64,000 bases of DNA. Source: Vulcanimicrobiota bacterium. Its GTDB lineage: Bacteria > Vulcanimicrobiota > Vulcanimicrobiia > Vulcanimicrobiales > Vulcanimicrobiaceae. The stretch covers positions 736,001-800,000 of the forward strand of contig CAWHWQ010000001.1 in assembly GCA_963833095.1 (NCBI GenBank), in the 5' to 3' direction. Below are positions 19,929 to 42,241 of this stretch, piece after piece (the first letter of the stretch is position 1; each line of letters starts with the position of its first letter). A model generated the notes under the pieces. That model worked only from the letters and a program-made list of their open reading frames with translations. It made no database searches and was not told the DNA's origin. Position numbers and translations under genes: made by a program.

Positions 19929-20771
19929 CTAGCGAAACACCGCGGGTTCACTGTACGAGTCGTAGTCGTCGTAGCGTACGCCGGCGAGATACAGCCCGTG
20001 CGCCGGCGCGGTCAATCCAGCGGCGCGACGATCGAGCGCCGCGAGAATGTGCGGCAGCGACGCCGGGTCGCGACGGCCAAGACCGCATTCGACCAGTGTG
20101 CCGACAATCGTGCGCACCATGCGGTGCACGAAACCGTCGGCGCTGATCGCCACGCGCACGAGGTCGTCGTGCGCGTCGATCGCGAGCGTTCGCACCTCGC
20201 GCACGGTCACGCCGCTTTCCGGTAAGACACCGCAGAACGATCGGAAATCGTGCTCGCCGATCAGATGCGAGGCTGCCGACCGCATCGCGTCGAGATCGAG
20301 CGGTCGCCGATACACGTGAAAGGCACGGCGCGCTAGGAGTGCGCTGCGATCGGGGCGGTTGAGAATAGCGTACACGTAGCTTCGCTCGCGTGCAGAGAAA
20401 CGCGCCGAGAATCCATTTGGCACGACGGCGACGTCGCGCACGCTGATGTCGTGCGGGAGCCTGCTATTGAGCGCGATAGCCAGCCGCTCAAATGGAAACG
20501 AGCGGGAGGTGATGCATGAAATCACCTGCCCGCTCGCGTGAACCCCGGTATCGGTGCGGCCCGCACCGGTGATTTTTACCGGCTCTTCGAAGAGTTCGCT
20601 CAGTGCCCGTTCGATTTCGCCGGCCACCGTGCGTCCCGATGCCTGCATCTGGAAACCAAAGAACGCCGTGCCGTCATATTCGACGGCACAGCGAATGGTT
20701 TGCGCTACGCGTTCACCGTCTGGCGCTTCGGTACGTTGCGCTTCTCGTCCAGATCCAACACGTCGGCCCAC
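19929..20771 (-). CDS. truA: tRNA pseudouridine(38-40) synthase; true start probably near 20705
   Basis: EYDGTAFFGFQ, GAGRTDTGVHASGQ, GEHDFRSF, MVRTIVG, TAPAHGLYL. Confidence 0.96.
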   Translation of the reverse strand: MGRRVGSGREAQRTEAPDGERVAQTIRCAVEYDGTAFFGFQMQASGRTVAGEIERALSELFEEPVKITGAGRTDTGVHASGQVISCITSRSFPFERLAIALNSRLPHDISVRDVAVVPNGFSARFSARERSYVYAILNRPDRSALLARRAFHVYRRPLDLDAMRSAASHLIGEHDFRSFCGVLPESGVTVREVRTLAIDAHDDLVRVAISADGFVHRMVRTIVGTLVECGLGRRDPASLPHILAALDRRAAGLTAPAHGLYLAGVRYDDYDSYSEPAVFR

Positions 20772-21148
20772 GTCGTTACGTCGGTGCGGTCCGGCGCGAC
20801 CTGACTGCGCAGCTCCAGAAAATACTTCCGCGAATCGTCATTGTCCGGTTCGTGTGCCAGCCATTCTTTATTCCAGGCCTCGATCTCTTGCGGCGATTTC
20901 TTGTCGATGAACGTTTTGACGTATGCCTGGATCTCGGCATCGCTCTTAGCGTTCTTGATCACGTTAAGCAACGCTTCGTGATCGATCCCGAGGAACGAAA
21001 AAACGGCTTGATCCATCGGGCAGTTATAGTGATACTCGCCGTTTTTGCCTTCGGCAAATGCCTTCCCCTTGTCAATGGTGCGACCGATCTGCACCAGTCC
21101 GAACAGCTTCTCGTGGACGCTGCGGGGATATGAAGTCGTTAGATCCAT
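20705..21148 (-). CDS. DUF5069-family protein
   Basis: ATG at 21148 with AGGAGA RBS; PRS...L.G...GRTIDK...GEYHYNCPMDQ..FSFLGI. Confidence 0.78.
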   Translation of the reverse strand: MDLTTSYPRSVHEKLFGLVQIGRTIDKGKAFAEGKNGEYHYNCPMDQAVFSFLGIDHEALLNVIKNAKSDAEIQAYVKTFIDKKSPQEIEAWNKEWLAHEPDNDDSRKYFLELRSQVAPDRTDVTTWADVLDLDEKRNVPKRQTVNA

Positions 21149-21172
21149 GGAGGATTCTCCTAAAGGTTTCGA

Positions 21173-21526
21173 TTGATAACGATACCCGTGACACCCTCGA
21201 ACGCACGCCGGTTTCGTCTGGGCGTTTTCGCGATATGCTGGCTGGTTGCCGCTGCCTTGCAAGTCTATGCGTCCGACGTCGGGACGCATGGAGAGGCCGT
21301 GGGGGCGTACGTGCCGGCCTGGTTGCTTGCATTCGCGGCGATCCCGGCTTGGACGCTCCTGGTGCCGGCGGTAGTCGACGGGGTCGCTGCGCTGTCGGCT
21401 CCGCGCTTTTCCGGCGGCGCCATGCGCGCGTTGACCATCCTGAACGCGACTGCCCTGGTTACCTACGCCTTCGTGAGCCTCGCGGTCATCTTTTACGTCG
21501 CCTTCGCCAACAACGGGATTAGCTAG
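21173..21526 (+). CDS. Hypothetical membrane protein
   Basis: Three hydrophobic segments; fills the gap between flanking genes. Confidence 0.5.
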   Translation: MITIPVTPSNARRFRLGVFAICWLVAAALQVYASDVGTHGEAVGAYVPAWLLAFAAIPAWTLLVPAVVDGVAALSAPRFSGGAMRALTILNATALVTYAFVSLAVIFYVAFANNGIS

Positions 21527-21684
21527 ACCGAGTTCTCGCATTCGGCGTGGCGGCACGAGCAGTGATCGTGCGGCGGGGCATCCGGATCCGCCGCGGCTTG
21601 CTCGCGACAGCGATCGCTGCAGTAGAACGCTCCAAGATCCACGTAGCAGGTGCACTGCGTGTGATCGCATTTCTGTCCGTCCAT
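21523..21684 (-). CDS. Bacterial metallothionein-like protein (53 aa)
   Basis: AAGGAGG RBS; 8 Cys and 4 His in CDHTQCTC, YCSDRC and CSCRHAEC. Confidence 0.78.
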   Translation of the reverse strand: MDGQKCDHTQCTCYVDLGAFYCSDRCREQAAADPDAPPHDHCSCRHAECENSV

Positions 21685-23239: not shown

Positions 23240-23767
23240 CTATGAGGCTTTCTTTGCGGCCTTCTTTGCCGAGGAAGCCGCGCTGCCGTTGCCATTACGA
23301 ATCCCGTCGATCTTGTACTTGACCACGCCGCGCGGGGTGGAGACATCGACCGTCTCGCCCTTCTTGTGGCCGATCAAGGCACGACCCAGGGGCGACTCGT
23401 TGGAGATGCGCTTGGCCGACGGATCGGCTTCAGCCGAGCCCACGATATGAAATTCGTAGCTCTCGTTGTTCTTGAGGTCTTTGACGTTGACCGTCGCGCC
23501 GATGTGGACTTCATCGCTGGCATATTCCGATTCGTCGAGGATCTTCGCGTTGCGAATCATGCCTTCGAGCTTCAAAATACGACCCTCGATGAACGCCTGC
23601 TCTTGCTTAGCGTCCTCGTATTCGGCATTTTCACTCAGGTCGCCGTATTCTTTGGCCTGGCGAATCCGGTCGTTGACCTCTTTGCGATGGACGGTCTTTA
23701 GCTCGTCCAACTCTTCCTGGAGCTTCTGCAGCCCCTCGGCGGTCAGGATGATCTCTTTATCGTTCAA
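23240..23767 (-). CDS. greA: Transcription elongation factor GreA
   Basis: GDLSENAEY, ISNESPLGRAL; TTG start. Confidence 0.96.
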   Translation of the reverse strand: MNDKEIILTAEGLQKLQEELDELKTVHRKEVNDRIRQAKEYGDLSENAEYEDAKQEQAFIEGRILKLEGMIRNAKILDESEYASDEVHIGATVNVKDLKNNESYEFHIVGSAEADPSAKRISNESPLGRALIGHKKGETVDVSTPRGVVKYKIDGIRNGNGSAASSAKKAAKKAS

Positions 23768-23871: not shown

Positions 23872-25203
23872 CTACCCGCGTCGTGCCCGCCCGCGCCAGA
23901 GCGCAAATGGTATACCCAACAGGACTCCCGCGCAAGCGTATCCCGAAAGTTTGTGATCCTCCACCGCCACGGTGGCAACCAGGACGCCCAGAAGCGCGAG
24001 CGCCCCGGCAAGCGGCACGAGCACGCCTCCCAACCGCGCAACCGGCTCACCCCAGAAACGCTTGGCTGCCGCAAGAGCCGTGAGCACGAACAGTAGGCCC
24101 AGAAAAATGGAGCTTGCGTTCAGGACGAGCGTCAATTGATCGGCGGCGCTCTTGGAAAAACCCGTGACGAGCTCGCAGAGCGTCGCCAGCACGGTTACCA
24201 CGCCCATCGACCAGAGCGGCTCGTCGCGCGCGTCCAAGGCCCCGAGAACTCGCGGCAAGACGCCGTCGCGCCCCATCGCGTACACCGAGCGCGTAAGATA
24301 TAAGATTGTCGTCCAAAGCGTCGAGAGCGTGGAAAGCAGCACGGTCACGACGATCGCGACGCGCCACCACGGTCCGCCGAGCAGTGAGCCCACGTAGGCC
24401 AACCCGTCGGCTTGATTATCGGCGAAGCCTTGCAGCGAGCCCAGATGCTCGAACGCGTACATGCACGCAAGCAACACGAGGGTCGAAAACACGAGACCAG
24501 TGATGCCGCCCCGGCCCGAAGCGCTCGAGGTGTCGTTAACCTCTTCGCTGGTCGAGGCGCTTACTTCCCAACCGTCGCTCATCCAAACCGCAAGTGTCAT
24601 CGCGGTCACAAATCCGACGACACCGAACGATGCGGGCAAAAGCGTACTATGCGGCGCTTCGTGCACCGGCGCCGGCGCGTGCAATGCGGCGGCAAGCGCC
24701 GCGACGAGCAGGACGCCGATTTCAAGTGCGAGCGCGAGCAGCGTCACGAGCGCGGTCGGACGTACGCCCGCGTAGAGTAAGGCCGAGCTTGCGAGAATCC
24801 AAACGGCGCCGACAACCGCCGCCCAAACGGGATCTTGTTCGTGAGCCGGCGCGACCAGCGCGAGCGTATAGATTCCGGCCGGCACCGCGATCGCCATCGT
24901 CGCGAAGAAGTTCGAGAGGAGGAGCAGCCACGCGCCATAGGCGCCGGTATGCGCACCGAAGGCCATGCGAATCCAGGAATACGATGAGCCGGCGTTCGGC
25001 GCGACGCGCGACAGATACGAAAACGACACGGCGATGCAGAGCATGATCGCTGAGAGCGCGAGTAACGCTAGCGGCGCGGCGAATCCGGCCGCAACGACCA
25101 TCGGCCCCATGGTGGAAGCAAGCGAATATGCCGGGCCCATCGATGCCGACGCCAGCACCGAGATATCGAAGAAACGCAAAACGCGCGGGAGGCGGCGCGT
25201 CAA
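23872..25203 (-). CDS. APC-family amino acid/polyamine permease (in frame with the upstream gene in this sequence)
   Basis: MGPAYSL, PNAGSSYSW, GWEVSASTSEE, RSVYAMGRDGVLP; possible own TTG start at 25203. Confidence 0.85.
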   Translation of the reverse strand: MTRRLPRVLRFFDISVLASASMGPAYSLASTMGPMVVAAGFAAPLALLALSAIMLCIAVSFSYLSRVAPNAGSSYSWIRMAFGAHTGAYGAWLLLLSNFFATMAIAVPAGIYTLALVAPAHEQDPVWAAVVGAVWILASSALLYAGVRPTALVTLLALALEIGVLLVAALAAALHAPAPVHEAPHSTLLPASFGVVGFVTAMTLAVWMSDGWEVSASTSEEVNDTSSASGRGGITGLVFSTLVLLACMYAFEHLGSLQGFADNQADGLAYVGSLLGGPWWRVAIVVTVLLSTLSTLWTTILYLTRSVYAMGRDGVLPRVLGALDARDEPLWSMGVVTVLATLCELVTGFSKSAADQLTLVLNASSIFLGLLFVLTALAAAKRFWGEPVARLGGVLVPLAGALALLGVLVATVAVEDHKLSGYACAGVLLGIPFALWRGRARRG

Positions 25204-26106
25204 TGTCAGGACGATCACACGCGGATCGAGATGCAATTCGTGAAGCACGCGCTCGTAGTCAGAAGCACGGACGTCGTCCCATTTTTTACCAAGCAGCGCT
25301 AAAAGCGCGGCCTCGACCACGTTCGTTCCGAACGAGCGACCATCGAAGTCGGGCGTCGTGGTAATGAGCAGCGCCACCCCACGCACGCGCAGCTCCTCGA
25401 TGTTGGCTGCCGTCACCGTATTGGTCAACACGATCTTGCCGTCGAGCCGCTCCGGCATGAACTGTCGCATGAAGTGGAAGTCGCCCGCGATGATGTCGGC
25501 CTCGTCGTAATACTGTGGATATTTTGGCTCGGGCGGTTTTTCTTGTTTCTTGCCGGTCGGGTAGAAAAATTGAAACGGCAACTTGCAGGCGTCGGGCAGA
25601 TATTTCTCAGCCATCTCTTCGAAGGTGCGCAGATCGCGCACGGCGATATCTTTGTCGAGCGCAAAGATAAAATCACCGAAGAGGACGTCAGCGCCGGCGT
25701 CGACCAACGCCTGCGCCATGCCGAAGCGGTCGAGCGCGCTGACCATGAGCACGCGCTTGCCGCGCAGCTCGATGCCCAGGTCGTTCTGCATGTACTGCAC
25801 GGCGTTGCGCTCGAGCGTATTCTTCAGGCCGCTGCCGTCGACGACCGGTGTCACCTTCGCTGCCTGCAGCAGCCGCAAGCCGTCGCGCAGCGCATAGCGC
25901 TTTGACCCGGCGTAAAGGTACACGTCGATGCCGCCCAGCCCAATCGCGTCGACCGTGCCGTCGAGCTCGCGCACGCGAGCTATCGCTTTATCAAGCTTGC
26001 CGTCGACGCCCTCACGCGAGATATCAAAATCTTCGCCGAGAAGATTCACGACCGCACGATGGTCGCGCGTCGAGGAGCCAAGTGAAACCGAAACGATCTT
26101 CTTCAC
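25204..26106 (-). CDS. Conserved protein of unknown function, often labelled 'quinate 5-dehydrogenase'; no stop before the APC permease
   Basis: VSVSLGSSTRDH, DAIGLGG, PVVDGSGLK, GRSFGTNVVEA. Confidence 0.7.
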
Positions 26107-26127
26107 TTCAACGGCGCTCCGCCCTAG

Positions 26128-26160
26128 GCTCCGCGCCCCCCACTTCGTGGGGCCCCCACT
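26128..26160. repeat. GC-rich palindromic intergenic element (REP-like)
   Basis: CCCCAC-TTC-GTGGGG hairpin (26138-26152) overlapping GTGGGGCCCCCAC; single copy in this window. Confidence 0.35.
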
Positions 26161-26196
26161 GTAGGACGCGCCCGAACGACATTGCGTCGTAAGCCA

Positions 26197-27303
26197 TCAT
26201 ACTGCGAGACCTCGTCGAGCCTCTGCAGCCACTCTTGTGGCGGCGATTTTTTCGGGCGTGATGGCGGTGTCGAACGCGCGCATGTCGGCGAGCGAAAAGC
26301 CGCAGCGCGACGCCATCGTTTCGATCTCGATCACTTTGTTGACGTCGATGCCGCGGCCGAGCGTATAACATTCGGCCCGATTCTCGAGCGCGAGCACCAT
26401 CGTTTCGCTCATGCACGCAAGCGCCGTGCGGGGTGGCAAGTTGAGATCGAATTCCGTACCCGGCTCACGGACGCGTTCGAAAAACGGATCGCCCGGAACG
26501 AGCATGTTGCCGCCTTCGGTCACCAATACGTCGGGGCGCTCGAGCGCGACGCGGCGGCTCACGTCGTGCGGAAGCGAAAGCTCGCACACCACGGCGCCCG
26601 GCAGTAGGTCCTCGGGTTGGATGACGTCCTGCGTCGACGACGTCGCGGTGAGAATCAGCTGCGAGCGGCGCACGGCGTCGGAAATATCCGTGGTGTGCGA
26701 GACTGCGCAAGGTAGTTCGGTCTTCATCTGCTCGGCGAATTTTGCGAGACGCGTATAGTTGCGCGCGACGAGCACGATGTGCTTGACGTGCGGCGCGAGC
26801 AGTTTGACGCAGGCACCGCCGATCGAGCCGGTCGCGCCGACGACGGCGACCGTGGCCGTCGCTGGATCAACACCCATCTCGCGCGCGCCGCGGAAGAAGC
26901 TTTGAATGCCGGCCGCGATCGTGAGCGAATTGCCGGTGGTGACCGGGATTGGCGACCGTTCCGCCACCGTGATGCCGCCGTCGCCCACGACGCCGGTGAA
27001 CGCGCCTAAGCCCGCGACCTCAGCGCCGAGTTCGGCGCCAATCTCGATGGCGCGTACGATGCGTTTGTAGACCTCTTCGCGGGGAAACTCCATCATCTGC
27101 TCGGGGAACAACGGCGCCGTTACGAACCAGCCTTCGGTCTCGCGCCCGTCCGGCGCGCGCACGCCGGTGACGTGCACGGTCGCCCACGGCGGCATCCACT
27201 CCATGATCTTGCGAACGATCGGCGCGCCTTTGCCCGCCGCGCCCGGCTCGTAGCGCGCGACGTCTTCGAGCGAGAGCGGATGAATCACAAAGCAGAACTT
27301 CAT
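26197..27303 (-). CDS. Long-chain acyl-ACP reductase-like protein (often labelled shikimate dehydrogenase)
   Basis: FCFVIHP, GLGAFT, TTGNSLT, Rossmann VVGATGSIG, ACMSETMVLALE (matches the catalytic Cys motif of cyanobacterial AAR). Confidence 0.8.
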   Translation of the reverse strand: MKFCFVIHPLSLEDVARYEPGAAGKGAPIVRKIMEWMPPWATVHVTGVRAPDGRETEGWFVTAPLFPEQMMEFPREEVYKRIVRAIEIGAELGAEVAGLGAFTGVVGDGGITVAERSPIPVTTGNSLTIAAGIQSFFRGAREMGVDPATATVAVVGATGSIGGACVKLLAPHVKHIVLVARNYTRLAKFAEQMKTELPCAVSHTTDISDAVRRSQLILTATSSTQDVIQPEDLLPGAVVCELSLPHDVSRRVALERPDVLVTEGGNMLVPGDPFFERVREPGTEFDLNLPPRTALACMSETMVLALENRAECYTLGRGIDVNKVIEIETMASRCGFSLADMRAFDTAITPEKIAATRVAAEARRGLAV

Positions 27304-27734
27304 TGTTCGGCTTGGACTTTCAGTGCGCGTAGCATCATCTCGCTATTCTCGAGTACCTTCTTCTGCAATGTCGGACCGATCAATTCTGCCAGCGTCGGTA
27401 CCCCGAAATCATACTCTACGGTGAGCAGCACGTGCGTCAAGCCATCGCGCTCCTCGAAGGTCCAAGCCCCCTCGAACGTGTCGAGATCGCCCTCGAGCAG
27501 CGCGTAGTCGATGCGCAGCGCAGCGTCGTCGAAACGATCCTCCTCGGTCCATTCGATCGGCGCCTCCTCAACCAGCGTCTTCCAGCGCGAGATCACCCGG
27601 TCCGGATGGCGCTCGAGCACCCGGACGGTCTCGACGTCGGGCATGAACTCGGGAAAGCGCTCTTGGTCTTTGGCAAGCTCGTAGACGACGCGGGCTGGAG
27701 CGGCGACCGCGATGCGGGATTCGACGTAGGGCAT
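27300..27734 (-). CDS. SRPBCC/START-fold lipid-binding protein (Coq10/polyketide cyclase-like)
   Basis: VYELAKDQERFPEFMPDV, EGDLDTFEGAWTF. Confidence 0.85.
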   Translation of the reverse strand: MPYVESRIAVAAPARVVYELAKDQERFPEFMPDVETVRVLERHPDRVISRWKTLVEEAPIEWTEEDRFDDAALRIDYALLEGDLDTFEGAWTFEERDGLTHVLLTVEYDFGVPTLAELIGPTLQKKVLENSEMMLRALKVQAEQ

Positions 27735-27736
27735 TT

Positions 27737-28996
27737 TTACAAGCGCCCGAGCTTCTCGGCCGCCGCCGCCACCCCTGCGCTCAACGCTGATAGCGCGATA
27801 TCGACCTCGCCCTCGGTGACGATCAGCGGCGGCTCGAGGCGAATCACACGCTGCTGGTTGAGCGTCCAGGCCGCGGTGACCCCGGCTTTGAGCATCTCGG
27901 GGATGATCCAACCACCATAGCCTTCGTTCGTGAGTTCGACACCGGCGAGCAAACCGAGTCCGCGCGCTTCGCGGATCACCTGTGGGTACTCAAGGGCAAT
28001 TGCTTTGCAGCCGTCGAGCAGTTGTTCGCCGCGCGCCCGCGCCTTGCTCACCAGATCGTCGTCGATTAACACGTCCATAGCGGCGAGCGCAGCGGCGCAG
28101 GCGATCTCGCTTCCACCAAACGTGGAAGTGTGAATCAACGGCTGCTTTGCGTACGCTCGACTCCAGGCGTCGGGCCGAGCGATGAACGCGCCGACCGGAA
28201 TGATGCCGCCGGAGAGCCCCTTCGCGAGCGTCATCACGTCGGGCACGACGTTGTCACGTTCGCAGGCAAAGAGATAGCCGCAGCGCCCAAGCCCTGTCTG
28301 GACTTCGTCAGCGATGAAGAGCGCGCCCGAACGGTCGCACGCCTCGCGCACCGCGCGCAAGTATCCCGCGGGCGGAACGTTGACCCCGCCTTCACCTTGC
28401 ACCGGCTCGACCACAAACGCCGCCGCATCGCGCAGCGCTTCATCGAGTACACGTGCCTCGCCGAAAGGCACGTGGGCGACATCGGCGAGTAACGGACGAA
28501 ACGGCGTTTGAAAGGCCTCGCGGCCGCTGATCGAGAGCGCGCCGAGGGTCTTGCCGTGATAGGCGTCGTGCGTTGCGACAATTTTCGCGCGTCCGGTGGC
28601 GGCGCGCGCGAGTTTGATCGCCCCCTCGAGCGCCTCGGTCCCGCTGTTGCACCAAAATGAATACTGCAGGTCACCCGGCGCAAGTTCGGCCAAGCGCTTT
28701 GCCGCGCGTCCGAGCGCGACGTTGAACATCGTCTTGCCCGAAAGCGACATGCGCTCCATCTGCTCGCGCACCGCCGCGATCACGCGCGGGTGCGAGTGCC
28801 CGAGCGTGAAGACACCGTAGCCACCGGCGAAGTCGAGATACGCCTTGCCGTTCTGATCCCAGATCGTGGTGCCGCAAGCGCGCACTTCCAGCGGCGAACC
28901 GGAGAGCTTCATCACGCGCGCCAGCGGCGGATTGATGAAGTTCTTATAGTTCTCGAACGCCTCGGAGGCCAGATCGTTCTCGGTCTCCGCCTTCAT
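27737..28996 (-). CDS. Class III PLP aminotransferase (putrescine/omega-transaminase-like)
   Basis: NSGTEA, YHGKTLGALS, EPVQGEGG, DEVQTGLGR, TLAKGLSGG, HTSTFGG. Confidence 0.93.
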   Translation of the reverse strand: MKAETENDLASEAFENYKNFINPPLARVMKLSGSPLEVRACGTTIWDQNGKAYLDFAGGYGVFTLGHSHPRVIAAVREQMERMSLSGKTMFNVALGRAAKRLAELAPGDLQYSFWCNSGTEALEGAIKLARAATGRAKIVATHDAYHGKTLGALSISGREAFQTPFRPLLADVAHVPFGEARVLDEALRDAAAFVVEPVQGEGGVNVPPAGYLRAVREACDRSGALFIADEVQTGLGRCGYLFACERDNVVPDVMTLAKGLSGGIIPVGAFIARPDAWSRAYAKQPLIHTSTFGGSEIACAAALAAMDVLIDDDLVSKARARGEQLLDGCKAIALEYPQVIREARGLGLLAGVELTNEGYGGWIIPEMLKAGVTAAWTLNQQRVIRLEPPLIVTEGEVDIALSALSAGVAAAAEKLGRL

Positions 28997-29694
28997 GCGA
29001 CCGGTGCCCCTACGGCAATGCCCAGGGGCGAATAGCCCAGCGACTCCGCGATCTCGTCGCCGTACAGCGACGCAAAAACGATCGGCGCGGCGCGCGAATC
29101 CAAATACGGTTCAACCTTCACGCGATAGGTTGCATCGGTATACGGACTCTCCACGCCGGCAAAAGCTTGCGCGCGAATCTCGCGATCGAGGATCTCGCGA
29201 AGCGTGCGCACTTTGCCATTGCGGCGCTCGTCAATCGTCCGATACAGCGATGCGAGGGTTTCCGCGCGGAGGAGTCCGACGGTCGGCTCTTCGCTGCTCC
29301 AGAGCATCACGACGACCCAGCCGCGCGCAACCTGATGCTTACTCTCGTAGCGATGCGAAAACTGCGTGAACGCGCGATTTGTCCAGCCGCCAAGCGCGTC
29401 GTCGGCAACGATAACGATCAGGCGCAACGCATCGTCAATGCCGTCCAAGCGCGACGCGCCCTCTCGCGCCGCTTCGAGCGCAACTGTTTCCGCGTCGAGC
29501 GCAAGCAGCTTCTCCACCTGTTCGAGTACATGCGGTTTGGCCATCGGGTTAACGTTCGAGATCGGCAATTCCATCTCGCCGGTCTGCGAGCGCAGAATAT
29601 CGAGGTACTCTTTGAAGCGCGCGAAGCCGCGCGGCTGTGTGTAGAGATCGCGCAGTTGCGCTAGAAACGGAACAGGCTCGACGGCGATCGCCAC
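28993..29694 (-). CDS. Hypothetical protein
   Basis: Coupled on both sides; NPMAK, DDALGGWTNR and LYGDE.A.SLGY.PLG look like conserved motifs. Confidence 0.7.
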   Translation of the reverse strand: MAIAVEPVPFLAQLRDLYTQPRGFARFKEYLDILRSQTGEMELPISNVNPMAKPHVLEQVEKLLALDAETVALEAAREGASRLDGIDDALRLIVIVADDALGGWTNRAFTQFSHRYESKHQVARGWVVVMLWSSEEPTVGLLRAETLASLYRTIDERRNGKVRTLREILDREIRAQAFAGVESPYTDATYRVKVEPYLDSRAAPIVFASLYGDEIAESLGYSPLGIAVGAPVA

Positions 29695-29695
29695 G

Positions 29696-30703
29696 TCACG
29701 CCGCGACCATTGGCGAGGACTGCACGCGCGCGATCGTCTCTTCAATCGTAGCTATCGCTTCCTCAGCAAAATCGATGCGCATGATCCGCTCGCGAAGGAT
29801 TGCTGCACCCGGAATCCCTTTGAGATAGAGAGCCACGTGCTTACGCATCTGCGGGACCGCGCGCGACTCTCCCAATTCGTCGACCATCGCGCGGTAGTGC
29901 GTAATGCAATAACGCAACCTATCGGCGGCCGACGGTACGGAGCGCATCTCGCGTCCTTCCATCAGATCGGCGATCTGCGCGATCAACCACGGATTTCCGA
30001 GCGTACCACGACCCAGCATGATCGCATCGACGCCGCTGTCGCGCATGCGCTCCATCGCCGCGCGTGGATCGTCCAGATCGCCGTTGCCGATGACCGGAAT
30101 GTCGATCGCTTCTTTCAAGCGCGCGATGTGCTCCCAATCCGCGCTGCCTTTATAAAACTGGCGCGCGGTGCGCGCATGCAGGGTGACGGCTTGCACGCCG
30201 ACCGCCTGCGCCCGCTTGGCGACGTCAATGTACACGAGGTCGGTCTCGCTCCACCCCAGACGCATCTTCATGGTCACCGGACAATCGACCGCATCGACGA
30301 CCGCCTTCATGATCGCCTCGCAACGATCGAGGTCGCGCAAGCATGCCGAACCGCCGTTGGTCTTGGTGACTTTGGGCGCCGGACAGCCGAAGTTGATGTC
30401 GACGATGTCGGCGCCGCACTCACGCACGACTTTAGCCGCTGCGGCCATCGTCGCCGGATCGTCACCCCAGAGCTGCGTTGAAACGGGCTTCTCGAGGCCG
30501 TGCTGATCGATCATCTCCATCGTGCGCTTGTTTGTGTATTTCAGCGCGTTCGACGAGACGAACTCGGTAACGGTCAGGCCAAGGCCAAAGGGTTTATAGA
30601 GCGCTCGCATCGTCCGGTTGGTAACGCCGGACATGGGTGCGAGCACGAGCGGAGGCCAGATCTGGAGGCTGCCGATTTGCAGCGGAGGCACGGTCGGGGG
30701 CAT
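29696..30703 (-). CDS. dusB: tRNA-dihydrouridine synthase DusB
   Basis: LAPMSGVT, DINFGCPAPKV, HARTARQ.Y.G.ADW, GNGD, RKH. Confidence 0.93.
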   Translation of the reverse strand: MPPTVPPLQIGSLQIWPPLVLAPMSGVTNRTMRALYKPFGLGLTVTEFVSSNALKYTNKRTMEMIDQHGLEKPVSTQLWGDDPATMAAAAKVVRECGADIVDINFGCPAPKVTKTNGGSACLRDLDRCEAIMKAVVDAVDCPVTMKMRLGWSETDLVYIDVAKRAQAVGVQAVTLHARTARQFYKGSADWEHIARLKEAIDIPVIGNGDLDDPRAAMERMRDSGVDAIMLGRGTLGNPWLIAQIADLMEGREMRSVPSAADRLRYCITHYRAMVDELGESRAVPQMRKHVALYLKGIPGAAILRERIMRIDFAEEAIATIEETIARVQSSPMVAA

Positions 30704-30711
30704 GGCGCCCG

Positions 30712-31476
30712 TTAGTATAGCGCAAATGCGCGCAAACCGTACAGGCTCAGATGTGGGTCTACGGATTCGATCACGGCGGTGTGCTTGGCCATGACGCCGG
30801 CGAGACCGCCGGTGGCAACGACGCGCGCCTGCACGCCCATCTCCGACCGCACGCGCCCAACCAACGCCTCGGTCTGACCGACGAATCCAAAGATGATGCC
30901 CGCCTGCAACGCTTCGATCGTATTGCGCCCGATCGCATGCTCGGGAGCGTCCAGCGCAATCTGGGGCAGCTTTGCGGCCCGCCCGATCAATGCGTCGATC
31001 GAAATATTGATGCCGGGTGCGATGGCAACGCCCAAGTACTCGCCCTGCGGCGAAAGCGCCATGAACACGGTCGCGGTGCCGTAACTCACGAGAATCAAGG
31101 GCACGCCGTAGCGCTCTTTCCCGCCGATCGCGCAGGCAACGAGATCAGCCCCCACCTCCGCCGGCCGATCGGTCTTGATGGTAATCAGCGCTTGCTGCTG
31201 CGCCTCGAGCACCATCGGCGTGACGCTAAAGAACTTTTGGCAGACCTCGATGAGCGTGTGATCGAGGCGCGGCACGACACTTGCGATAGCAACGGCGTCG
31301 ATCTCGCGCGAACGAAGGCCCGCTGTCGCAAAGAGCTGCGTAAAGAAGACGCCGTACTCGTCGGCAGTCCGACGTGATTCGGTGGTCACGCGCCAGTGAT
31401 GCAGCAGCTCGTTTGCATCATTCGCGAACACGCCGAGTTTGGTCTCGGTGTTGCCGACATCGATTGCGAGCAGCAT
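30712..31476 (-). CDS. coaX: Type III pantothenate kinase
   Basis: AIDVGNT, ASVVP, VGAD, GTAT, VATGG. Confidence 0.94.
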   Translation of the reverse strand: MLLAIDVGNTETKLGVFANDANELLHHWRVTTESRRTADEYGVFFTQLFATAGLRSREIDAVAIASVVPRLDHTLIEVCQKFFSVTPMVLEAQQQALITIKTDRPAEVGADLVACAIGGKERYGVPLILVSYGTATVFMALSPQGEYLGVAIAPGINISIDALIGRAAKLPQIALDAPEHAIGRNTIEALQAGIIFGFVGQTEALVGRVRSEMGVQARVVATGGLAGVMAKHTAVIESVDPHLSLYGLRAFALY

Positions 31477-32651
31477 CAGCGCAGCGCCTCGATGGCGTCG
31501 AGGAGGCGTGCCGCGAGCTCGGCCTTACTTGCGGTACCGAGGTCCTTGCGGCCGTCCTTCCACAGCAGTGTCAGGGTGTTCTCGCCCGCGCCGAAGCCGC
31601 GCTCGCCGCGCACATCGTTGACGACGATCGCATCGAGCGCTTTGCGTTCCAACTTCTCGCGTGCGTGCGCTTCGTGGTCGTCCGTCTCGGCGGCGAAACC
31701 AACCACAAAGGCTTCGTCGTTGCGCTGCGCGAGCGCGGCGATTACGTCGGGGTTGCGTACCATCTGCACGGCCAAATCCTCGTCCGTTTTCTTTAGTTTA
31801 GATTCCGAGTGCTGGGCGGGACGCCAGTCGGCAACGGCTGCACTCGCGATCACCAGATCGACACGCAGGCCGTGCGCCAGCGCCAGGTCCAGGAGATCCT
31901 GCGCGCTCGTGAAGCGATAGGTGGTAACGCCCGGCGGCGGTTCGAGCAGCGTTGGTCCAAGCAACAGCGTCACGTCGGCGCCGCGCAGGGCGGCCTCGCG
32001 CGCAATGGCGATGCCGGTCGAACCGGTCGACGCGTTGCTCACGAAGCGGATCGGATCGAAGGCCTCGCGCGTAGGACCCGCCGTCACCAGCACGCTGACG
32101 CCGGCCAGGCGCTGCGTACGCGCGAGGACGCGCTCGAGTACCTCGAGCAGAGCCTCCTCACTCGCCAATCGCCCCACGCCGCTCTCGCGCTCGGCGAGAA
32201 ATCCGCGCTCGGGATCGACGATCTCGCAGCCGCGCTCGCGCAGCGTGCGCAGATTCGCTTGCGTTGCCGGATGATCGTACATCGCCGAATTCATCGCGGG
32301 CGCGATTACCAACGGAATGCGCGCGGCGAGCGCCGCCGCCGTCACCAAATCGTCGGCAATGCCTTGCGCGAGTTTCGCGATGCAATTCGCGGTTGCGGGC
32401 GCAATGAGCATGACTTGCGCCTCGCGCACCAATCGAATGTGGGGAATGCGCTCGGGCGCGTCCCACAACGACGTGTAGACCGGTCGCGCGGTCAAGGACG
32501 AAAAGGTCAAAGCGCCGACGAAGCGCTCAGCCTCTGCCGTCATGATGACGTCGACCGTTGCCCCACGCTGCACGAGCGTGCTGGTAAGCGCCGCAATTTT
32601 GTACGCCGCGATTCCGCCACACACGCCGAGCAAAATGCGCGCGTTCATCAT
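31476..32651 (-). CDS. coaBC: Phosphopantothenoylcysteine decarboxylase/ligase
   Basis: GGIAAYK, APATAN, APAMN, TAGPTRE.FDPIRF, AAVAD, GFAAET. Confidence 0.96.
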   Translation of the reverse strand: MMNARILLGVCGGIAAYKIAALTSTLVQRGATVDVIMTAEAERFVGALTFSSLTARPVYTSLWDAPERIPHIRLVREAQVMLIAPATANCIAKLAQGIADDLVTAAALAARIPLVIAPAMNSAMYDHPATQANLRTLRERGCEIVDPERGFLAERESGVGRLASEEALLEVLERVLARTQRLAGVSVLVTAGPTREAFDPIRFVSNASTGSTGIAIAREAALRGADVTLLLGPTLLEPPPGVTTYRFTSAQDLLDLALAHGLRVDLVIASAAVADWRPAQHSESKLKKTDEDLAVQMVRNPDVIAALAQRNDEAFVVGFAAETDDHEAHAREKLERKALDAIVVNDVRGERGFGAGENTLTLLWKDGRKDLGTASKAELAARLLDAIEALR

Positions 32652-33472
32652 TCGATCCAAAGGTTGTCGAGCAAGCGCGTCGTGCCGAATCGTGCAGCCC
32701 CGATCACAAACGCGGGCGGTGAGAGCGTGTCGATCGGCGTGAACGAGTTGGCATCGACCACGTCGAGATAGTCGAGCTGCGCGAGCGGATGCAAGCGCGT
32801 TCGTCCCGCGGAGATGGCGTCGGCTTTGGAACGACCGCTGGCCATCGCGAGACGCACTGCTTGCAATGCGTGATGCAGCGACGGCGCCGCTTCGCGCTCG
32901 TCGGGCGAGAGGTAGGCATTGCGGCTCGACATCGCGAGGCCATCGGATTCGCGCTCCGTGGGCACGATCGTCACACTCGTCGGAATCTCCAGATCGCGAA
33001 TCATACGCCTCACGACGGCGGTCTGCTGCGCGTCCTTTTGGCCCAAATAGAGCACGTCGGGACGTACGACGTTGAGCAGCTTGCAGACGACCGTGGTCAC
33101 GCCGCGAAAGTGCCCCGGCCGGATTGCGCCCTCGAAGACGTCGGCGATGGGGCCGGCGTCGACCGAGGTAGAAAAATCGGGCGGGTACATGGCCGCCGAG
33201 CTCGGGGCGAAGAGCACGTCGACGCCGGCCTGGGCGAGCTTGGCGCGATCGCCGTCGGCGTCACGCGGATAGCGAGCGAGATCCTCCTCCGGCGCGAACT
33301 GCAGCGGATTGACGAAAACCGAGGCCGCCACCGCGACCGATTCGGCTCGTGCTCGACGAACCAGCGCGAGATGCCCCTCATGGAGCGCACCCATCGTCGG
33401 GACGAAGCCGAGCGGCCGGGGCAAGACGTCGAAAAGCGCATGTGCTTGCGAGATGGTCGAAGCGACTTGCAC
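32648..33472 (-). CDS. panC: Pantoate--beta-alanine ligase
   Basis: VPTMGALHEGH, RPGHFRGV, GQKDAQQ, AMSSRN, RLLDN. Confidence 0.96.
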   Translation of the reverse strand: MQVASTISQAHALFDVLPRPLGFVPTMGALHEGHLALVRRARAESVAVAASVFVNPLQFAPEEDLARYPRDADGDRAKLAQAGVDVLFAPSSAAMYPPDFSTSVDAGPIADVFEGAIRPGHFRGVTTVVCKLLNVVRPDVLYLGQKDAQQTAVVRRMIRDLEIPTSVTIVPTERESDGLAMSSRNAYLSPDEREAAPSLHHALQAVRLAMASGRSKADAISAGRTRLHPLAQLDYLDVVDANSFTPIDTLSPPAFVIGAARFGTTRLLDNLWIE

Positions 33473-33477
33473 GGTGG

Positions 33478-33771
33478 CTAGATACGCGTAACGCGGAGCA
33501 CCGTGCGACCGACCATGAAGGGAACCCCGATCTCGATTGCAGCGTCGCCGCTTACCAGCTCGCCGTTGACCTTGGTTCCGTTGCGGCTCTCGAGGTCGGT
33601 GAGATGCAAATTCTCCCCATCGATGCGAACGTGCGCGTGCTTGCGCGAGACGTAGCGATCGAGGGCTATACACGCCTGAGCCACCGAATCGTCGCGGCCG
33701 ATCGTGATTTCGCTTTCGAATGTCCAACTTTTTCCGTCGAGCGGTCCACTGAGGACCTCAAGCAGGTACAT
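33478..33771 (-). CDS. Stand-alone FHA-domain protein
   Basis: IGR, VSRKHA, DLESRNGTKVNG. Confidence 0.9.
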   Translation of the reverse strand: MYLLEVLSGPLDGKSWTFESEITIGRDDSVAQACIALDRYVSRKHAHVRIDGENLHLTDLESRNGTKVNGELVSGDAAIEIGVPFMVGRTVLRVTRI

Positions 33772-38416: not shown

Positions 38417-41400
38417 TTAGAGTTTGACCGTTACCGTGAAGTAGGCATTGAACGGCAGGGGCAATTGCGCACCGGCCGCACCGTCAGCTGCCGGCGAACC
38501 GGTCAACGGGCGGTAGCTTTGGAACAGGAAGTTGTACGGTTGCACGCCGCCGTTGGCGACTGCATCGTACGTTGACGGGTTGCCTGCCGTCAGCTGTCCA
38601 GCTCCGTTTTGGAAGTTGGAGATGTACTCTCCGTTGGGCTCGTATCCGCAGACCGCCTGACCCGCCGGATAGGCGCTGGCCCACGCCTGCTTCGTGCCAC
38701 CAAAGCACGAGTGGAAGACGTTGGCCAAGGTCAACTGCGCGCTGATCCGCGGTGAGAGGTCATACGAGATTTGGATGTTGCCGGTCACAACGCTCGGCTC
38801 GCGGAACGCGCCGAGTGTCGCAAACGATCCCGTTTGCGGATTCGGGATATACAGGTACCCAATCGGCGAGGCCGAGGTTCCTTGCAGTGACGTGTAGTCG
38901 CACTGCTGAGGATTCGTGCCTGCCGTCACGATCGGAACGGTCGCGTTAGCCGAGTTGTTTGCACACTCGCGCGGGTCGTAACCGATAACGTCGTACGGCG
39001 TGCCGTACGAGGTGCCTTCCGTGAACTGGACGCTCGGCGTGATCGCAAGCTTGTTCTTGCGATAGTTCAGGACGATCGAGCCAACCCACGGTGAGTCGTA
39101 GTATCCCGGATCCGTGTTAACGCCCGTCTGAAGCAGATAGGACGTTGCCGGATACCAACCGTTGGGATCCAGCGTCCCTTGCGGACTTGCGTTGTAATAC
39201 GGGTTCAGGATCGCGGTGGGCGCCGCGCACGACGATGCCGTGCCCGGTGCCCCAGGCGCAGCCGGGGTGTAGCACGGCGAGCCACCGCCGGCCTTGGTGA
39301 GCAGGTTGAACTGAGAGATGGCATTGTTGATGCCATTGATTTGGTTGGGCAGATCTCCGCCGAACTCGCTGCGATACTGCATCTTGTTGTTGTCGTATGC
39401 AAGCGAGACTTGACCGGAGAGGCCGTTACGGCTGAAGTCGCCCTTCTGCACGCCCAGCTCGACGCCGTAGTTGCGCGTCACACCAACCGGAACTTGCGTC
39501 ACGAAGCCTTGGCCGATGAAGGCGTCGGCTTGATATCCGTTCGTAAAGCTGTAGAACGGCGTGAGTTTGAAGCTCAGGTCGCTTCCGCGAATGTGGCGTT
39601 CGAGTGAGAGGTCGTACTGCGCTGACGACTGCGCCGGGATCGCGTGGAAGGGCGAGAAGAACCCGAGGTTCTCGAAGTTGCCCCACAACGTGTTACCGGC
39701 ACCCGACGAGTACAGGTACTGCACCGACGCCGAAATCGGCGGCTCGGTGTAGCGACCGGCCGAAATGCGCCAGACGGTGTCCGGCGATTCCGTGTACGTT
39801 GCCGATGCGCGCAGCGAGTAGAAGCTCTGCGGATACGAACTTGGCGACGCCGCCGTGAAGTTCGGAACCGTGAACGAGCTCGTTTGCGTTTGATCGCCGT
39901 TCGGGTGGACGTAGGTTACGCCCGCCGGAATGACGACGCCGGCAGCCGTGAGGCCGGCATTACAGTTGCCGTTGATGTACTGGAGCGGCGCAGGCGGCGG
40001 GACGCCGGGCGGTAATGGTTCGCCGGCGACGCCGTAGGACGGATTCCAGCACGTGTACTTGTTCACGATCTGCGCGTAGAACTGGTTCGCAGTCGTGTTG
40101 CTGTCGGCGAGATCGTACAGGTAATCTTCGTAGCGAAGACCACCGCTGATCAGCCATTTGTCGTTGGGACGGAAGTCGTCGGTCAACGACACGAAGGTGA
40201 ACTTCGGTTGCACCGTATTAAAGGTACCCGAAGCGTTGCCTTGCCACAGGGTATCCCAGTTTGCACCGGCGGCAGTACCGGCCGGTCCAACGGGGCCGGT
40301 GGGCCCAGCAACCGAGTTGCTCTTATACGAGCTCGAGTAGCACGGGACAGCCGTGTCGTAGCCTGGACTGGCCGCATTCTCGTTCCAACACGTCCATTGA
40401 CCGCCAGCTTGGCTGATCGCACCAATTGGCGAGGCTTCGCCGAGGTAGCCCGTGTTATTGAAGCGGGTTACGTTGGCTGATGTGAAGTTGCCCGTCAACT
40501 GCACGAGGTTTTGTGCATTGAACTGATCGGCGAACTGGAGTTCACCGCCGGCCGTGTGCGTGATGAGATCGTAGTTCGGCGAGATACCGGTGCTGTAGTC
40601 AGCATCGTATCCGGCCGCGTCGATCGCGCCCGCTTGCGTCCAGTCCGAGAAGAACGTGTACGCAAATGCACGGATGTACGAGTGATCCGAGAGTTCGTGC
40701 GTGTACTGCGCTTTGACGATCCCGGTGTCGTTCCAGTAGTTGTCCGGCTGGTCGGCCGGAATCGTCGCGAAGGGCGCGCGATTGGTCGGGCTGGACGGCT
40801 GGTAGTAGTTCTCCAGCGTCAGACCCGAGATCGGGGTGCCGAATGCACCGTTATAGACCTGCGCGTCGACGAACGACGCGCCGGGTCCGGCTGCGCCGGT
40901 TGTCAACACGGATTGCAGTTCCTGACCGTACGTCAGGCCGCTTCCGTCGTTGAGCGGCTGCGAACCGAGATCGTTTGCGCTGCTGTAGAGGAACGTTTTG
41001 AGCGATGACGAGCTGTAGAGCAGCTGGATGTCATCGCGCAGACCGTTCTTGCGCGGGATCCCGAAGTGGAAGTTGACCACGTTTTCGCGGTCGCTGATCA
41101 TCGACGCTGCACCGATGAGGCCGAAGTACGGGATTAAGCATCCCGTCGGGGCCGGATAAGCCGTCGTTGAAGCGACCGGGTTAACCGTGGGAACGCCGTT
41201 TGCCGCGTTTTGACACGCGACTTGGGGACCCTCGACCAACGTGTTAAACGAGAGATCCGGCGAGAAGAAATCCGGGAGGATACTGTAGCTCTCGAATACT
41301 CCGCCCGGACCCATGTAGCTCGAACCGTTGTTATTGTCGATCACGCGGTTGGCTTGATTGTATCCGCTGATGCCGACGTAGTAGCTGAAGTTACGGTCAG

Positions 41401-42241
41401 GCGTCGCGCCGCCGGCTTCAACCTTGGCTTGATGGTAGAACGCGTCCGTAGCGATGCCGCCCGTGAGCGATGCATAGCCGGGATACGTTCCCGTCTTGAT
41501 AACCTGGTTGATGAAGCCCGAGGTACCCGCCGACGAGTTCGACGCAGGTCCACCGCCGGTGTACACCTGAAGCTCTTGCAAGCCCAGGTTCGACTCCGTC
41601 GAGGAGTTGTAGTTGTCGAACGCGCGGTTGACCGGGATGCCGTCGTATTCAAATCCGGTGAAGAACGACTGCGAACCACGGATATACACGTCTTGACCCC
41701 AACCCATGCCGCCGATTGGCACGTTCACGCCGGGGACCGACGCGATCGCCGAATAGGCGCTGTTGAGATTTCCGCCGCCACCGAGCGCGGCTGTCGCCGT
41801 GATCGCTGCTGCGTTGACGTTGTAGAGATCCGATCCGACACTGCCTCGAACGAGCGAGCCCGCAGCGGTCGATGTTACGTGCGCAATTGTTTTGAGCGCA
41901 GGTTGCATCGTGTACGCTTGGGTTTGCTGTTGGTCGGCAAAAACCGTGATGCCGGCCACAGAGATCGGATTGTATTGGTCTTTTTCGATCGACACCGTAT
42001 ATGTATCCGGTGCCAACGAGAGGAACACAAAGTGTCCCGTTGAGTCCGTCTGGGTGGAAGCAACCTGCGATGCCGAGCTTACCTTTACGGCAGCCCCGGC
42101 AACCGGTTTACCACTTTCGTCTCGAACCGAGCCGCTGAGTCCGCCCGTGGTTCCTGCCAGTGCCCATGTTCCCTGAAGCAAGAACGCTACGAGAAGCATC
42201 AACGCCACGGCCACCTGACGGATGGTCCGTTTGCTTGTCAT
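38417..42241 (-). CDS. TonB-dependent receptor with N-terminal carboxypeptidase-regulatory-like domain
   Basis: Signal peptide; GSVRDESGKPVAGA, SLAPDTYTV; plug-like SVPGV...YIRG...YDGIPVN...SGFINQVIKTG; beta-barrel-type alternating strands. Confidence 0.85.
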   Translation of the reverse strand: MTSKRTIRQVAVALMLLVAFLLQGTWALAGTTGGLSGSVRDESGKPVAGAAVKVSSASQVASTQTDSTGHFVFLSLAPDTYTVSIEKDQYNPISVAGITVFADQQQTQAYTMQPALKTIAHVTSTAAGSLVRGSVGSDLYNVNAAAITATAALGGGGNLNSAYSAIASVPGVNVPIGGMGWGQDVYIRGSQSFFTGFEYDGIPVNRAFDNYNSSTESNLGLQELQVYTGGGPASNSSAGTSGFINQVIKTGTYPGYASLTGGIATDAFYHQAKVEAGGATPDRNFSYYVGISGYNQANRVIDNNNGSSYMGPGGVFESYSILPDFFSPDLSFNTLVEGPQVACQNAANGVPTVNPVASTTAYPAPTGCLIPYFGLIGAASMISDRENVVNFHFGIPRKNGLRDDIQLLYSSSSLKTFLYSSANDLGSQPLNDGSGLTYGQELQSVLTTGAAGPGASFVDAQVYNGAFGTPISGLTLENYYQPSSPTNRAPFATIPADQPDNYWNDTGIVKAQYTHELSDHSYIRAFAYTFFSDWTQAGAIDAAGYDADYSTGISPNYDLITHTAGGELQFADQFNAQNLVQLTGNFTSANVTRFNNTGYLGEASPIGAISQAGGQWTCWNENAASPGYDTAVPCYSSSYKSNSVAGPTGPVGPAGTAAGANWDTLWQGNASGTFNTVQPKFTFVSLTDDFRPNDKWLISGGLRYEDYLYDLADSNTTANQFYAQIVNKYTCWNPSYGVAGEPLPPGVPPPAPLQYINGNCNAGLTAAGVVIPAGVTYVHPNGDQTQTSSFTVPNFTAASPSSYPQSFYSLRASATYTESPDTVWRISAGRYTEPPISASVQYLYSSGAGNTLWGNFENLGFFSPFHAIPAQSSAQYDLSLERHIRGSDLSFKLTPFYSFTNGYQADAFIGQGFVTQVPVGVTRNYGVELGVQKGDFSRNGLSGQVSLAYDNNKMQYRSEFGGDLPNQINGINNAISQFNLLTKAGGGSPCYTPAAPGAPGTASSCAAPTAILNPYYNASPQGTLDPNGWYPATSYLLQTGVNTDPGYYDSPWVGSIVLNYRKNKLAITPSVQFTEGTSYGTPYDVIGYDPRECANNSANATVPIVTAGTNPQQCDYTSLQGTSASPIGYLYIPNPQTGSFATLGAFREPSVVTGNIQISYDLSPRISAQLTLANVFHSCFGGTKQAWASAYPAGQAVCGYEPNGEYISNFQNGAGQLTAGNPSTYDAVANGGVQPYNFLFQSYRPLTGSPAADGAAGAQLPLPFNAYFTVTVKL

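Follow-up and report, generated by a model that had tools for sequence, protein, structure and literature searches.

The window, a 64,000-nucleotide stretch of contig CAWHWQ010000001.1 from a Vulcanimicrobiota bacterium, contains on its minus strand (23872-29694) a gene cluster with a conserved core of four genes, which encode a class III aminotransferase (AT3), a small SRPBCC/START-like protein, an NAD(P)H-dependent thioester reductase (RED) and a protein labelled 'quinate 5-dehydrogenase', here called X. With slightly better than even confidence, the four-gene unit is taken to be a split, stand-alone form of the two-step logic of the enzymes PigE and TamH, of which the product would most likely be a long-chain alkylamine for the cell envelope. 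The chemistry, from thioester through aldehyde to amine, is well supported by sequence comparison; that the substrate is fatty and that the amine ends up in alkylamine lipids is the likeliest reading, plausible and as yet unproven.

Conservation of the core genes

Close homologues bear names that assign the organism to Eremiobacterota (Vulcanimicrobiota), a phylum of soil bacteria about which little is known. Eighty named loci with an alignment to RED were compared, of which 54 are close (RED at least 54% identical) and 26 more distant; the contig scan for RED loci yielded Eremiobacterota, Armatimonadota and Bacillota only, and a locus is counted as evaluable if it has enough flanking DNA. The complete AT3-SRPBCC-RED-X set is found in 48 of the 54 close loci, including all of the evaluable ones (38/38), and in 9 of the 26 distant loci (8 of the 17 evaluable). 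Ten deep-branching genomes of the phylum all possess AT3, RED and X, and nine of them possess SRPBCC, which was not detectable in the tenth. RED is present in 148 of 151 sampled genomes of the phylum, a tally that takes in the unpublished genome G128, and in 119 of the 120 that are of high quality. Phylum-wide, X and SRPBCC are about as well conserved as GreA, with 48-60% identity in the deepest comparisons. A permease gene follows X in 20 of the close loci and is absent from the other 34, and a homologue of the hypothetical protein at the other end of the cluster occurs in 4 of the 54 (L002, L003, L021 and L050); because of this limited distribution, both are considered accessory.

The distant loci (Armatimonadota, Bacillota and other) include five X-RED pairs without an aminotransferase, and RED is solitary in 11 Armatimonadota-type loci and in the Bacillota locus L066. 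Four genomes from distant loci with incomplete clusters nevertheless all possess X and an AT3-like gene at some position. In one Bacillota phylum RED is unevenly distributed, being present in 58 of 101 genomes. The neighbours of RED in Fimbriimonadales were considered as candidates for X and ruled out; they have no informative family match. The nearest relatives outside Eremiobacterota belong to thermophilic or anaerobic Bacillota, and the few named representatives are from Bacillota, Armatimonadota, Coprothermobacter, Syntrophothermus and Chloroflexota, none being from Deinococcota. One subclade has an additional gene between SRPBCC and RED, which in L006 (6900-7989) encodes S-adenosylmethionine (SAM)-methyltransferase domains (Methyltransf_9, E 2.3e-12); gaps of 1-2 kb separate SRPBCC from RED in L008, L011, L018, L022, L023, L035, L038, L042, L043 and L045-L048, and the open reading frames (ORFs) inserted at this point in L018 have no family match.

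The reductase, the aminotransferase and their partners

RED (26197-27303, minus strand), according to NCBIfam, PDB and model-fold comparisons, is a true thioester reductase of the family that contains the cyanobacterial acyl-acyl carrier protein (ACP) reductase (AAR) and the N-terminal half of PigE. It matches the N-terminal half of the PigE model NF053554 (model positions 47-354) with 211.3 bits (E 2.6e-62) and the AAR model TIGR04058 with 81.4 bits (E 7.3e-23), which is under the 449.7-bit equivalog cut-off, and its best solved relatives are PigE (4ppm, E 8.1e-41) and AAR (6jzq, E 1.3e-13). Its motifs are PVTTGN, GATGSIG (GxxGxxG) and ACMSETMVLALE; the last contains, within ACMSE, the residue C297, which lines up with the catalytic Cys of both AAR (C294 of SeAAR) and PigE. 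C297 is nearly invariant, G156-G162 is invariant, and GATGSIG is invariant in 12 sequences. The structure model of RED (pLDDT 92.5) superposes on the terminal amidation domain (TAD) of carmabin synthase (9e4s) at Z 35.0 and on AAR 6jzq_A at Z 34.8 (root-mean-square deviation [rmsd] 3.0, 325 residues aligned, 24% identity), and the next unrelated match is at 15.6. RED has the three-domain fold, the catalytic Cys and the GxxGxxG motif of AAR. Matches to HemA models are weak (41 bits; Z 14.7 to 4n7r). Shikimate dehydrogenase was rejected as an identity for RED (22.3 bits against a 221-bit cut-off, with no full-length match), the resemblance to shikimate dehydrogenase models being confined to the NAD-binding domain PF01488 (39.3 bits, residues 147-253). 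No aldehyde deformylating oxygenase (ADO; PF11266) was found in the genome to which the window belongs, which is 80.7% complete.

AT3 (27737-28996, minus strand; Pfam Aminotran_3, 326.6 bits) is a class III aminotransferase of the YgjG/PigE branch. It scores 415.4 bits against the C-terminal half of the PigE model NF053554 (positions 370-730) and 424.8 bits against the putrescine aminotransferase model NF008570, for which the cut-off is 612 bits, and its best matches in the PDB are YgjG (364 bits, E ~1e-107) and PigE (309 bits). The lysine that binds pyridoxal phosphate (PLP), K259, aligns with K300 of YgjG, and the Glu/Gln typical of the class is also in place. In YgjG, Lys183 replaces the carboxylate-binding Arg of related enzymes, and Gln119 contacts the distal amine of putrescine (PMC4244111). 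K149 of AT3 aligns with this Lys183 and is Lys in 26 of 26 orthologues; thus AT3 has the YgjG-type Lys and not the carboxylate-binding Arg of the ornithine, acetylornithine and gamma-aminobutyrate (GABA) enzymes. Putrescine aminotransferase proper was rejected as an identity for AT3, its score being below the cut-off and Gln119 being replaced by Lys or Arg in the sequence alignment.

The SRPBCC/START-like protein (27300-27734 within an ORF of 27300-27911, minus strand; 144 aa) matches PF03364 (Polyketide_cyc) with 72.2 bits, above the threshold of 23.4, and its best solved relative is TTHA0849 of Thermus thermophilus (2d4r, E 1.7e-22, residues 1-139).

Protein X (25204-26106, minus strand) corresponds to residues 1-301 of a 744-aa ORF and has no Pfam or NCBIfam hit and no sequence match among solved structures. 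Its model (pLDDT 90.1, pTM 0.87) is closest to AAR (6jzq, Z 14.5, rmsd 4.2, 244 residues aligned) and to the TAD 9e4s (Z 13.9), followed by generic amino-acid-dehydrogenase and periplasmic-binding folds with Z of at most 10.8; Foldseek likewise ranks AAR first. A quinate or shikimate dehydrogenase was rejected as an identity for X, the Z scores being 9.7 for AroE and 8.7 for quinate dehydrogenase versus 14.5 for AAR. In an alignment of 21 orthologues 50 columns are invariant, of which many are polar and none is Cys, and X lacks a glycine-rich loop. Since a profile comparison of X with RED gave a probability of 1.8%, detecting no kinship, it is from the fold that kinship with AAR is read, and we interpret X as an ancient AAR-fold paralogue devoid of the Cys. 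A predicted complex of RED with X scored 0.00, a value that carries no weight for or against binding.

Domain fusions were sought in 20 representatives of the RED homologues (2961 hits at E <=0.001 among 50%-identity representatives). X is fused to RED in P0140, P0141 and P0138 (BLASTP E 2e-66 to 1e-28), and many homologues of approximately 700 aa consist of X in front of RED, those of Chloroflexota being labelled "serine carboxypeptidase". SRPBCC is fused to the N-terminus of RED in P0150, P0177, P0136, P0146 and P0186, and an aminotransferase is fused to RED in P0244 and P0257. The other arrangements are PilZ-SRPBCC-RED, RED-GAF and PlsY-RED, PlsY being glycerol-3-phosphate acyltransferase and PilZ a c-di-GMP receptor; these fusions to PilZ with SRPBCC, to PlsY or to GAF (P0136, P0146, P0186, P0230 and P0196) hint at envelope-linked regulation. 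When plasmids were searched with RED by tblastn, the matches were PigE/TamH-like fusions only, mostly of Ralstonia (128 Ralstonia plasmid records). One of these, on the megaplasmid CP056086.1 of Ralstonia solanacearum (L100:3551-8511), is a fused 836-aa PigE-like reductase-transaminase beside a 'decarboxylase' gene, which, to judge from its position, we take to be the counterpart of PigD.

In two Bacillota genomes (L097:3491-6121 and L098:3931-6561), a paralogue of X is followed by a 117-aa protein resembling the SCP2 lipid carrier and by an APC permease, and in L097 by a response-regulator-PAS-GGDEF-HD protein after these. This permease is just 24% identical to that of the window and is of a different subfamily, so X has come together with APC permeases on more than one occasion; in both associations a small hydrophobic-ligand-binding protein is encoded close by.

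The first-pass annotation of the cluster, the interpretation of which is supported in part, had recognized the class III aminotransferase and an AAR-like reductase with TTGN, Rossmann glycine and catalytic Cys motifs, and had proposed that together they represent a split form of PigE/TamH; the matches of the two gene products to the C-terminal and N-terminal halves of PigE bear this out, as does the superposition of the RED model on AAR, a comparison that had been suggested as a check. Its observation that no aldehyde decarbonylase accompanies them can be extended from the cluster to the incomplete genome, and its suspicion that the shikimate and quinate labels mislead is upheld for both RED and X. 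X itself, which it had listed as an unknown, would be an AAR-fold paralogue that is fused to RED elsewhere, and not a bystander.

Proposed pathway and alternative explanations

PigE and TamH reduce a thioester and then transaminate the resulting aldehyde, as has been demonstrated experimentally (PMC8341465, PMC9594044), and the cluster therefore divides this pair of steps between separate gene products. PigE, of the 2-methyl-3-n-amylpyrrole (MAP) branch of prodigiosin biosynthesis in Serratia (NF053554, 4ppm), likewise joins an AAR-like Cys reductase to a class III transaminase, but it is a single polypeptide encoded in a pigment cluster beside PigD, whereas here there are two proteins with the SRPBCC gene between them, X joined to the set and housekeeping genes as neighbours; RED and AT3 both score far below the PigE cut-off of 850 bits. 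TamH, of the tambjamine YP1 pathway of Pseudoalteromonas tunicata, converts an ACP-bound acyl group to a C12 fatty amine with glutamate as the donor (PMC9594044); no other proven fatty-amine route with an AAR-family reductase and an omega-transaminase is known. Unlike the cluster, TamH is a fusion with the transaminase first, depends on the dedicated carrier TamA, serves secondary metabolism and has neither SRPBCC nor X. The locus has neither the fusion characteristic of PigE and TamH nor the surroundings of a pyrrole-pigment cluster, in which PigD, or TamA and its carrier, would be encoded.

Other systems share one or the other half of this logic. The cyanobacterial AAR-ADO pathway (TIGR04058, 6jzq) has a reductase with the fold, Cys and GxxGxxG motif of RED, and AAR is described as drawing on the housekeeping acyl-ACP pool and passing its insoluble aldehyde to a partner (PMC7089970); the downstream enzyme there is ADO, in place of which the cluster has a transaminase, and RED falls well short of the AAR equivalog cut-off. 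In HemA and HemL, too, a Cys-dependent enzyme reduces an activated carboxyl group and the aldehyde goes on to a class III PLP enzyme, an analogy that has been drawn for PigE as well (PMC8341465), but their substrate is a tRNA ester, their second enzyme is a mutase, and the relationship is distant. The TAD of carmabin synthase, the top fold match of RED and the second of X, combines the AAR fold with an invariant Cys; it is part of a nonribosomal peptide synthetase/polyketide synthase (NRPS/PKS) megasynthase, and the preprint describes its reaction as not established (bioRxiv 10.1101/2024.10.28.620694). The tambjamine BE-18591 pathway of Streptomyces makes a C12 amine with a stand-alone acyl-ACP reductase, TabE, and a likewise stand-alone omega-transaminase, TabA; unlike RED, TabE is reported to belong to the aldehyde dehydrogenase superfamily, and the pathway to have a dedicated ACP and a thioesterase (bioRxiv 10.1101/2025.08.11.669332).

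Sequence kinship, catalytic motifs, folds, linkage of the genes, their conservation and the fusions of domains are observed; which way the reactions run, what acyl chain they use, what SRPBCC and X do and where the amine goes are inferred. Cys297 of RED would accept the acyl group of a phosphopantetheine thioester, and RED would then reduce this group, with NAD(P)H, to the aldehyde. The acyl donor is most likely an acyl-ACP of fatty acid synthesis, because the cluster encodes no carrier protein and no activating enzyme, in which it resembles AAR. From the aldehyde AT3 would form a primary amine, the amino group probably coming from glutamate; SRPBCC may hold or pass on the poorly soluble intermediate; X would be a constant and probably non-redox partner of RED; and the product would most likely be a long-chain alkylamine destined for the cell envelope.

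The recurrent association of these proteins with SRPBCC, SCP2 and PlsY constitutes a hydrophobic-ligand theme that favours a fatty substrate, and the characterized members of the AAR family (AAR, PigE and TamH) are reported to act on carrier-bound, mostly hydrophobic acyl groups (PMC8341465, PMC9594044, PMC7089970). In AAR the aldehyde is described as leaving through the N-terminal domain to a partner, a handover attributed to the insolubility of long aldehydes (PMC7089970), and this is the end of RED to which SRPBCC is fused in other genomes.

Alkylamine phosphoglycolipids are major membrane lipids of Deinococcus and Thermus. Tentatively, and with more doubt than attaches to the alkylamine itself, the four-protein module may be a housekeeping fatty-amine synthase for the N-glyceroyl alkylamine phosphoglycolipids of Deinococcus, Thermus and some Bacillota. 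Indirect support for the tie to Deinococcus and Thermus comes from the AAR model, which matches only 3 of 14 control genomes (Synechococcus, Thermus thermophilus and Deinococcus radiodurans), the latter two having no match to ADO (PF11266); from the relationship of SRPBCC to TTHA0849; and from an Atlas cluster of X look-alikes, a lead only, that is commonest in Deinococcota. N-glyceroyl alkylamine lipids are also reported from Moorella thermoacetica and "several Bacillota" (PMC13274423), the phylum that supplies the nearest relatives outside Eremiobacterota, a 2022 paper on Thermus gives the alkylamine route merely as a probable pathway, and the polar lipids of the sole cultured member of Eremiobacterota are all listed as unidentified in its description (PMC9758169). 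The literature searched contained no paper that names the fatty-amine enzymes of the Thermus and Deinococcus alkylamine lipids, and none that describes the four-gene module. If the module is an alkylamine-lipid synthase, then its near-universal presence implies that the membranes of Eremiobacterota also hold alkylamine lipids.

Several observations weigh against a fatty substrate or against an obligatory amine product. The cavity of TTHA0849 is given as approximately 18 cubic angstroms (PMC13525633), and the tunnel residue Tyr247 of AAR is not conserved in RED. At the position of YgjG Gln119, 24 of 26 orthologues of AT3 have Lys or Arg, according to a sequence alignment in a loop region, whereas the Ralstonia PigE-like enzyme has Val; a basic residue here would be a better match for a substrate with an anionic or polar far end than for a simple alkyl chain. 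The occurrence of an APC permease after X in two phyla hints at a small polar solute. Finally, RED, X and an aminotransferase-like gene are dispersed in Fimbriimonadales and in one Bacillota genome, so that the link to the aminotransferase is not universal.

In one alternative the same chemistry is applied to a short acyl group that bears a carboxylate, for example to make beta-alanine for pantothenate and coenzyme A (CoA) from a malonyl-thioester by way of malonate semialdehyde, or a GABA-like omega-amino acid from a succinyl-thioester. The beta-alanine route was considered because the aspartate decarboxylase PanD is missing phylum-wide: PanD (PF02261) was not found in the 80.7%-complete genome of the window and occurs in 1 of 61 sampled genomes of the phylum (1 of 57 of high quality), yet PanC, CoaBC and CoaX are encoded upstream of the cluster, and in the deep-branching loci L086, L087, L088 and L091 CoaX adjoins the aminotransferase. 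The basic residue at the distal substrate position of AT3 and the permease adjoining X would also suit such a product, and malonyl-ACP would share the housekeeping ACP pool with fatty acyl-ACP. However, in one class of Bacillota PanD and RED are each present in 29 of 30 genomes, X also coexists with PanD, PanD is found together with components of the module in G153 and G154 and with the full cluster in G006, and Thermus and Deinococcus match both the PanD and the AAR models. The order coaX-dusB-greA-lysS recurs in Bacillota loci without an aminotransferase (L071, L078 and L066), so that the CoA neighbourhood may be inherited gene order. Moreover, AT3 has Lys instead of the carboxylate-binding Arg of the GABA, ornithine and acetylornithine transaminases, and the SRPBCC, SCP2 and PlsY associations suggest hydrophobic ligands. 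Weakened by these results, a short-chain carboxylate substrate is judged unlikely.

Two further explanations dispense with a synthetic amine and are both highly improbable. RED and X might work, by way of a fatty aldehyde, towards a product other than an amine (a fatty alcohol, wax ester, long-chain diol or ether lipid, for example), with the aminotransferase as a lineage-specific neighbour that serves a different purpose; this would account for the X-RED pairs and fusions of Bacillota, Armatimonadota and Chloroflexota that have no aminotransferase close by, and for the solitary RED of the 11 Armatimonadota-type loci. Yet aminotransferases are fused to RED homologues in PigE, TamH, P0244 and P0257, the aminotransferase is coupled to SRPBCC-RED in every evaluable locus of Eremiobacterota, and genomes with dispersed genes keep an aminotransferase 45-48% identical to AT3, the same level as their RED. 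The least likely of the alternatives is that the module runs in the catabolic direction, with an amine (putrescine or another organocation) brought in by the APC permease and deaminated by AT3 and its aldehyde oxidized by RED, via the Cys, to an acyl-thioester. The close relationship of AT3 to the putrescine aminotransferase of E. coli, its best solved relative, and the coupling of a permease to X in the window and in the minority of close loci noted above are what would be expected of it. The core four are kept, however, in the loci from which the permease is absent; the Lys or Arg in place of Gln119 would repel a diamine; AAR, PigE and TamH are all reported to work reductively on carrier thioesters (PMC8341465, PMC9594044, PMC7089970); and near-universality with GreA-level identity would be unusual for an accessory catabolic pathway.

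The preferred synthesis of a fatty amine from acyl-ACP would, in comparison with known systems, be new in its split four-protein form, its AAR-fold partner X, its SRPBCC partner, its housekeeping position and its phylum-wide conservation. If the module does make the fatty amine of the Thermus and Deinococcus lipids, it would provide a function for thousands of genes labelled shikimate/quinate dehydrogenase or serine carboxypeptidase, make X a new protein family derived from the AAR fold, lead one to expect that Eremiobacterota, most of which are uncultured, have unusual membranes chemically, and offer biocatalysis a compact and carrier-independent means of making fatty amines out of fatty acyl-ACP. 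Whatever its substrate, a phylum-wide and highly conserved module of reductase and transaminase merits assay.

Organization of the locus

The cluster lies within a series of housekeeping genes in the order PanC-CoaBC-CoaX-DusB-[cluster]-GreA-LysS-DUF5069-TruA. PanC is encoded at 32648-33727, CoaBC at 31476-32660 and CoaX at 30712-31476. The immediate flanks, which are outside the pathway, are DusB upstream (29696-30703, minus strand; TIGR00737, 362.8 bits against a cut-off of 293.3) and GreA downstream (23240-23764, minus strand; NF001263, 203.4 bits against a cut-off of 145), the NF001263 match beginning at residue 58 of the GreA ORF. Within the cluster, the gene pairs for the hypothetical protein and AT3 and for SRPBCC and RED overlap by ATGA, AT3 and SRPBCC are 2 nt apart, and RED and X are 90 nt apart. 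The start of SRPBCC is likely the ATG at 27734, because the Pfam match starts there. Scans of promoter-like sites (3 versus 1.6 expected) and terminator-like sites (9 versus 7.7 expected) gave results not above chance.

The accessory permease (23872-25203, minus strand) is of the APC family (AA_permease_2, PF13520, 88.6 bits, above the threshold of 27) and reached no NCBIfam equivalog, the best score being 73.9 bits against a requirement of 556.8. Its match spans residues 311-713 of the 744-aa ORF (23872-26106), in which it follows in frame upon the X domain of approximately 300 aa, which is without family match. In the closest relatives, L002 and L003, X and the permease are separate genes, the TGA stop of X overlapping the TTG start of the permease, and the internal TTG at 25203 of the window corresponds to this start codon. 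The two share a frame in the window (25195-25212) because it is one base longer there than L002 and L003, with ACA against two bases; the joined frame may be a genuine, recent fusion or an assembly indel.

All six products listed in the first-pass annotation are thus encoded on the minus strand, coupled as it had described and set among housekeeping genes as it had recognized. Its six-gene unit contracts to four conserved genes, the hypothetical protein and the permease being accessory, and X and the permease, both present, occupy a single reading frame here and not two.

The hypothetical protein (28993-29694 within an ORF of 28993-29745, minus strand; approximately 233 aa) likely starts with the GTG at 29694, because residues further upstream overlap dusB and contain a stop in the relative L002. 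It has no Pfam, NCBIfam or PDB match; a weak Atlas lead connects it at 0.90 to clusters resembling DUF2268, a family of putative metalloproteases. Its conserved motifs are LNPMAK, GGWTNR, EEPT and SLGYPPLG, and look-alike clusters are found in Bacteroidota, Acidobacteriota and Chloroflexota. Elsewhere in the window, the DUF5069 protein between LysS and TruA is encoded at 20705-21670, and a 1274-aa protein, of which the sole assigned domain is an N-terminal CarboxypepD_reg, is encoded at 38417-42241.

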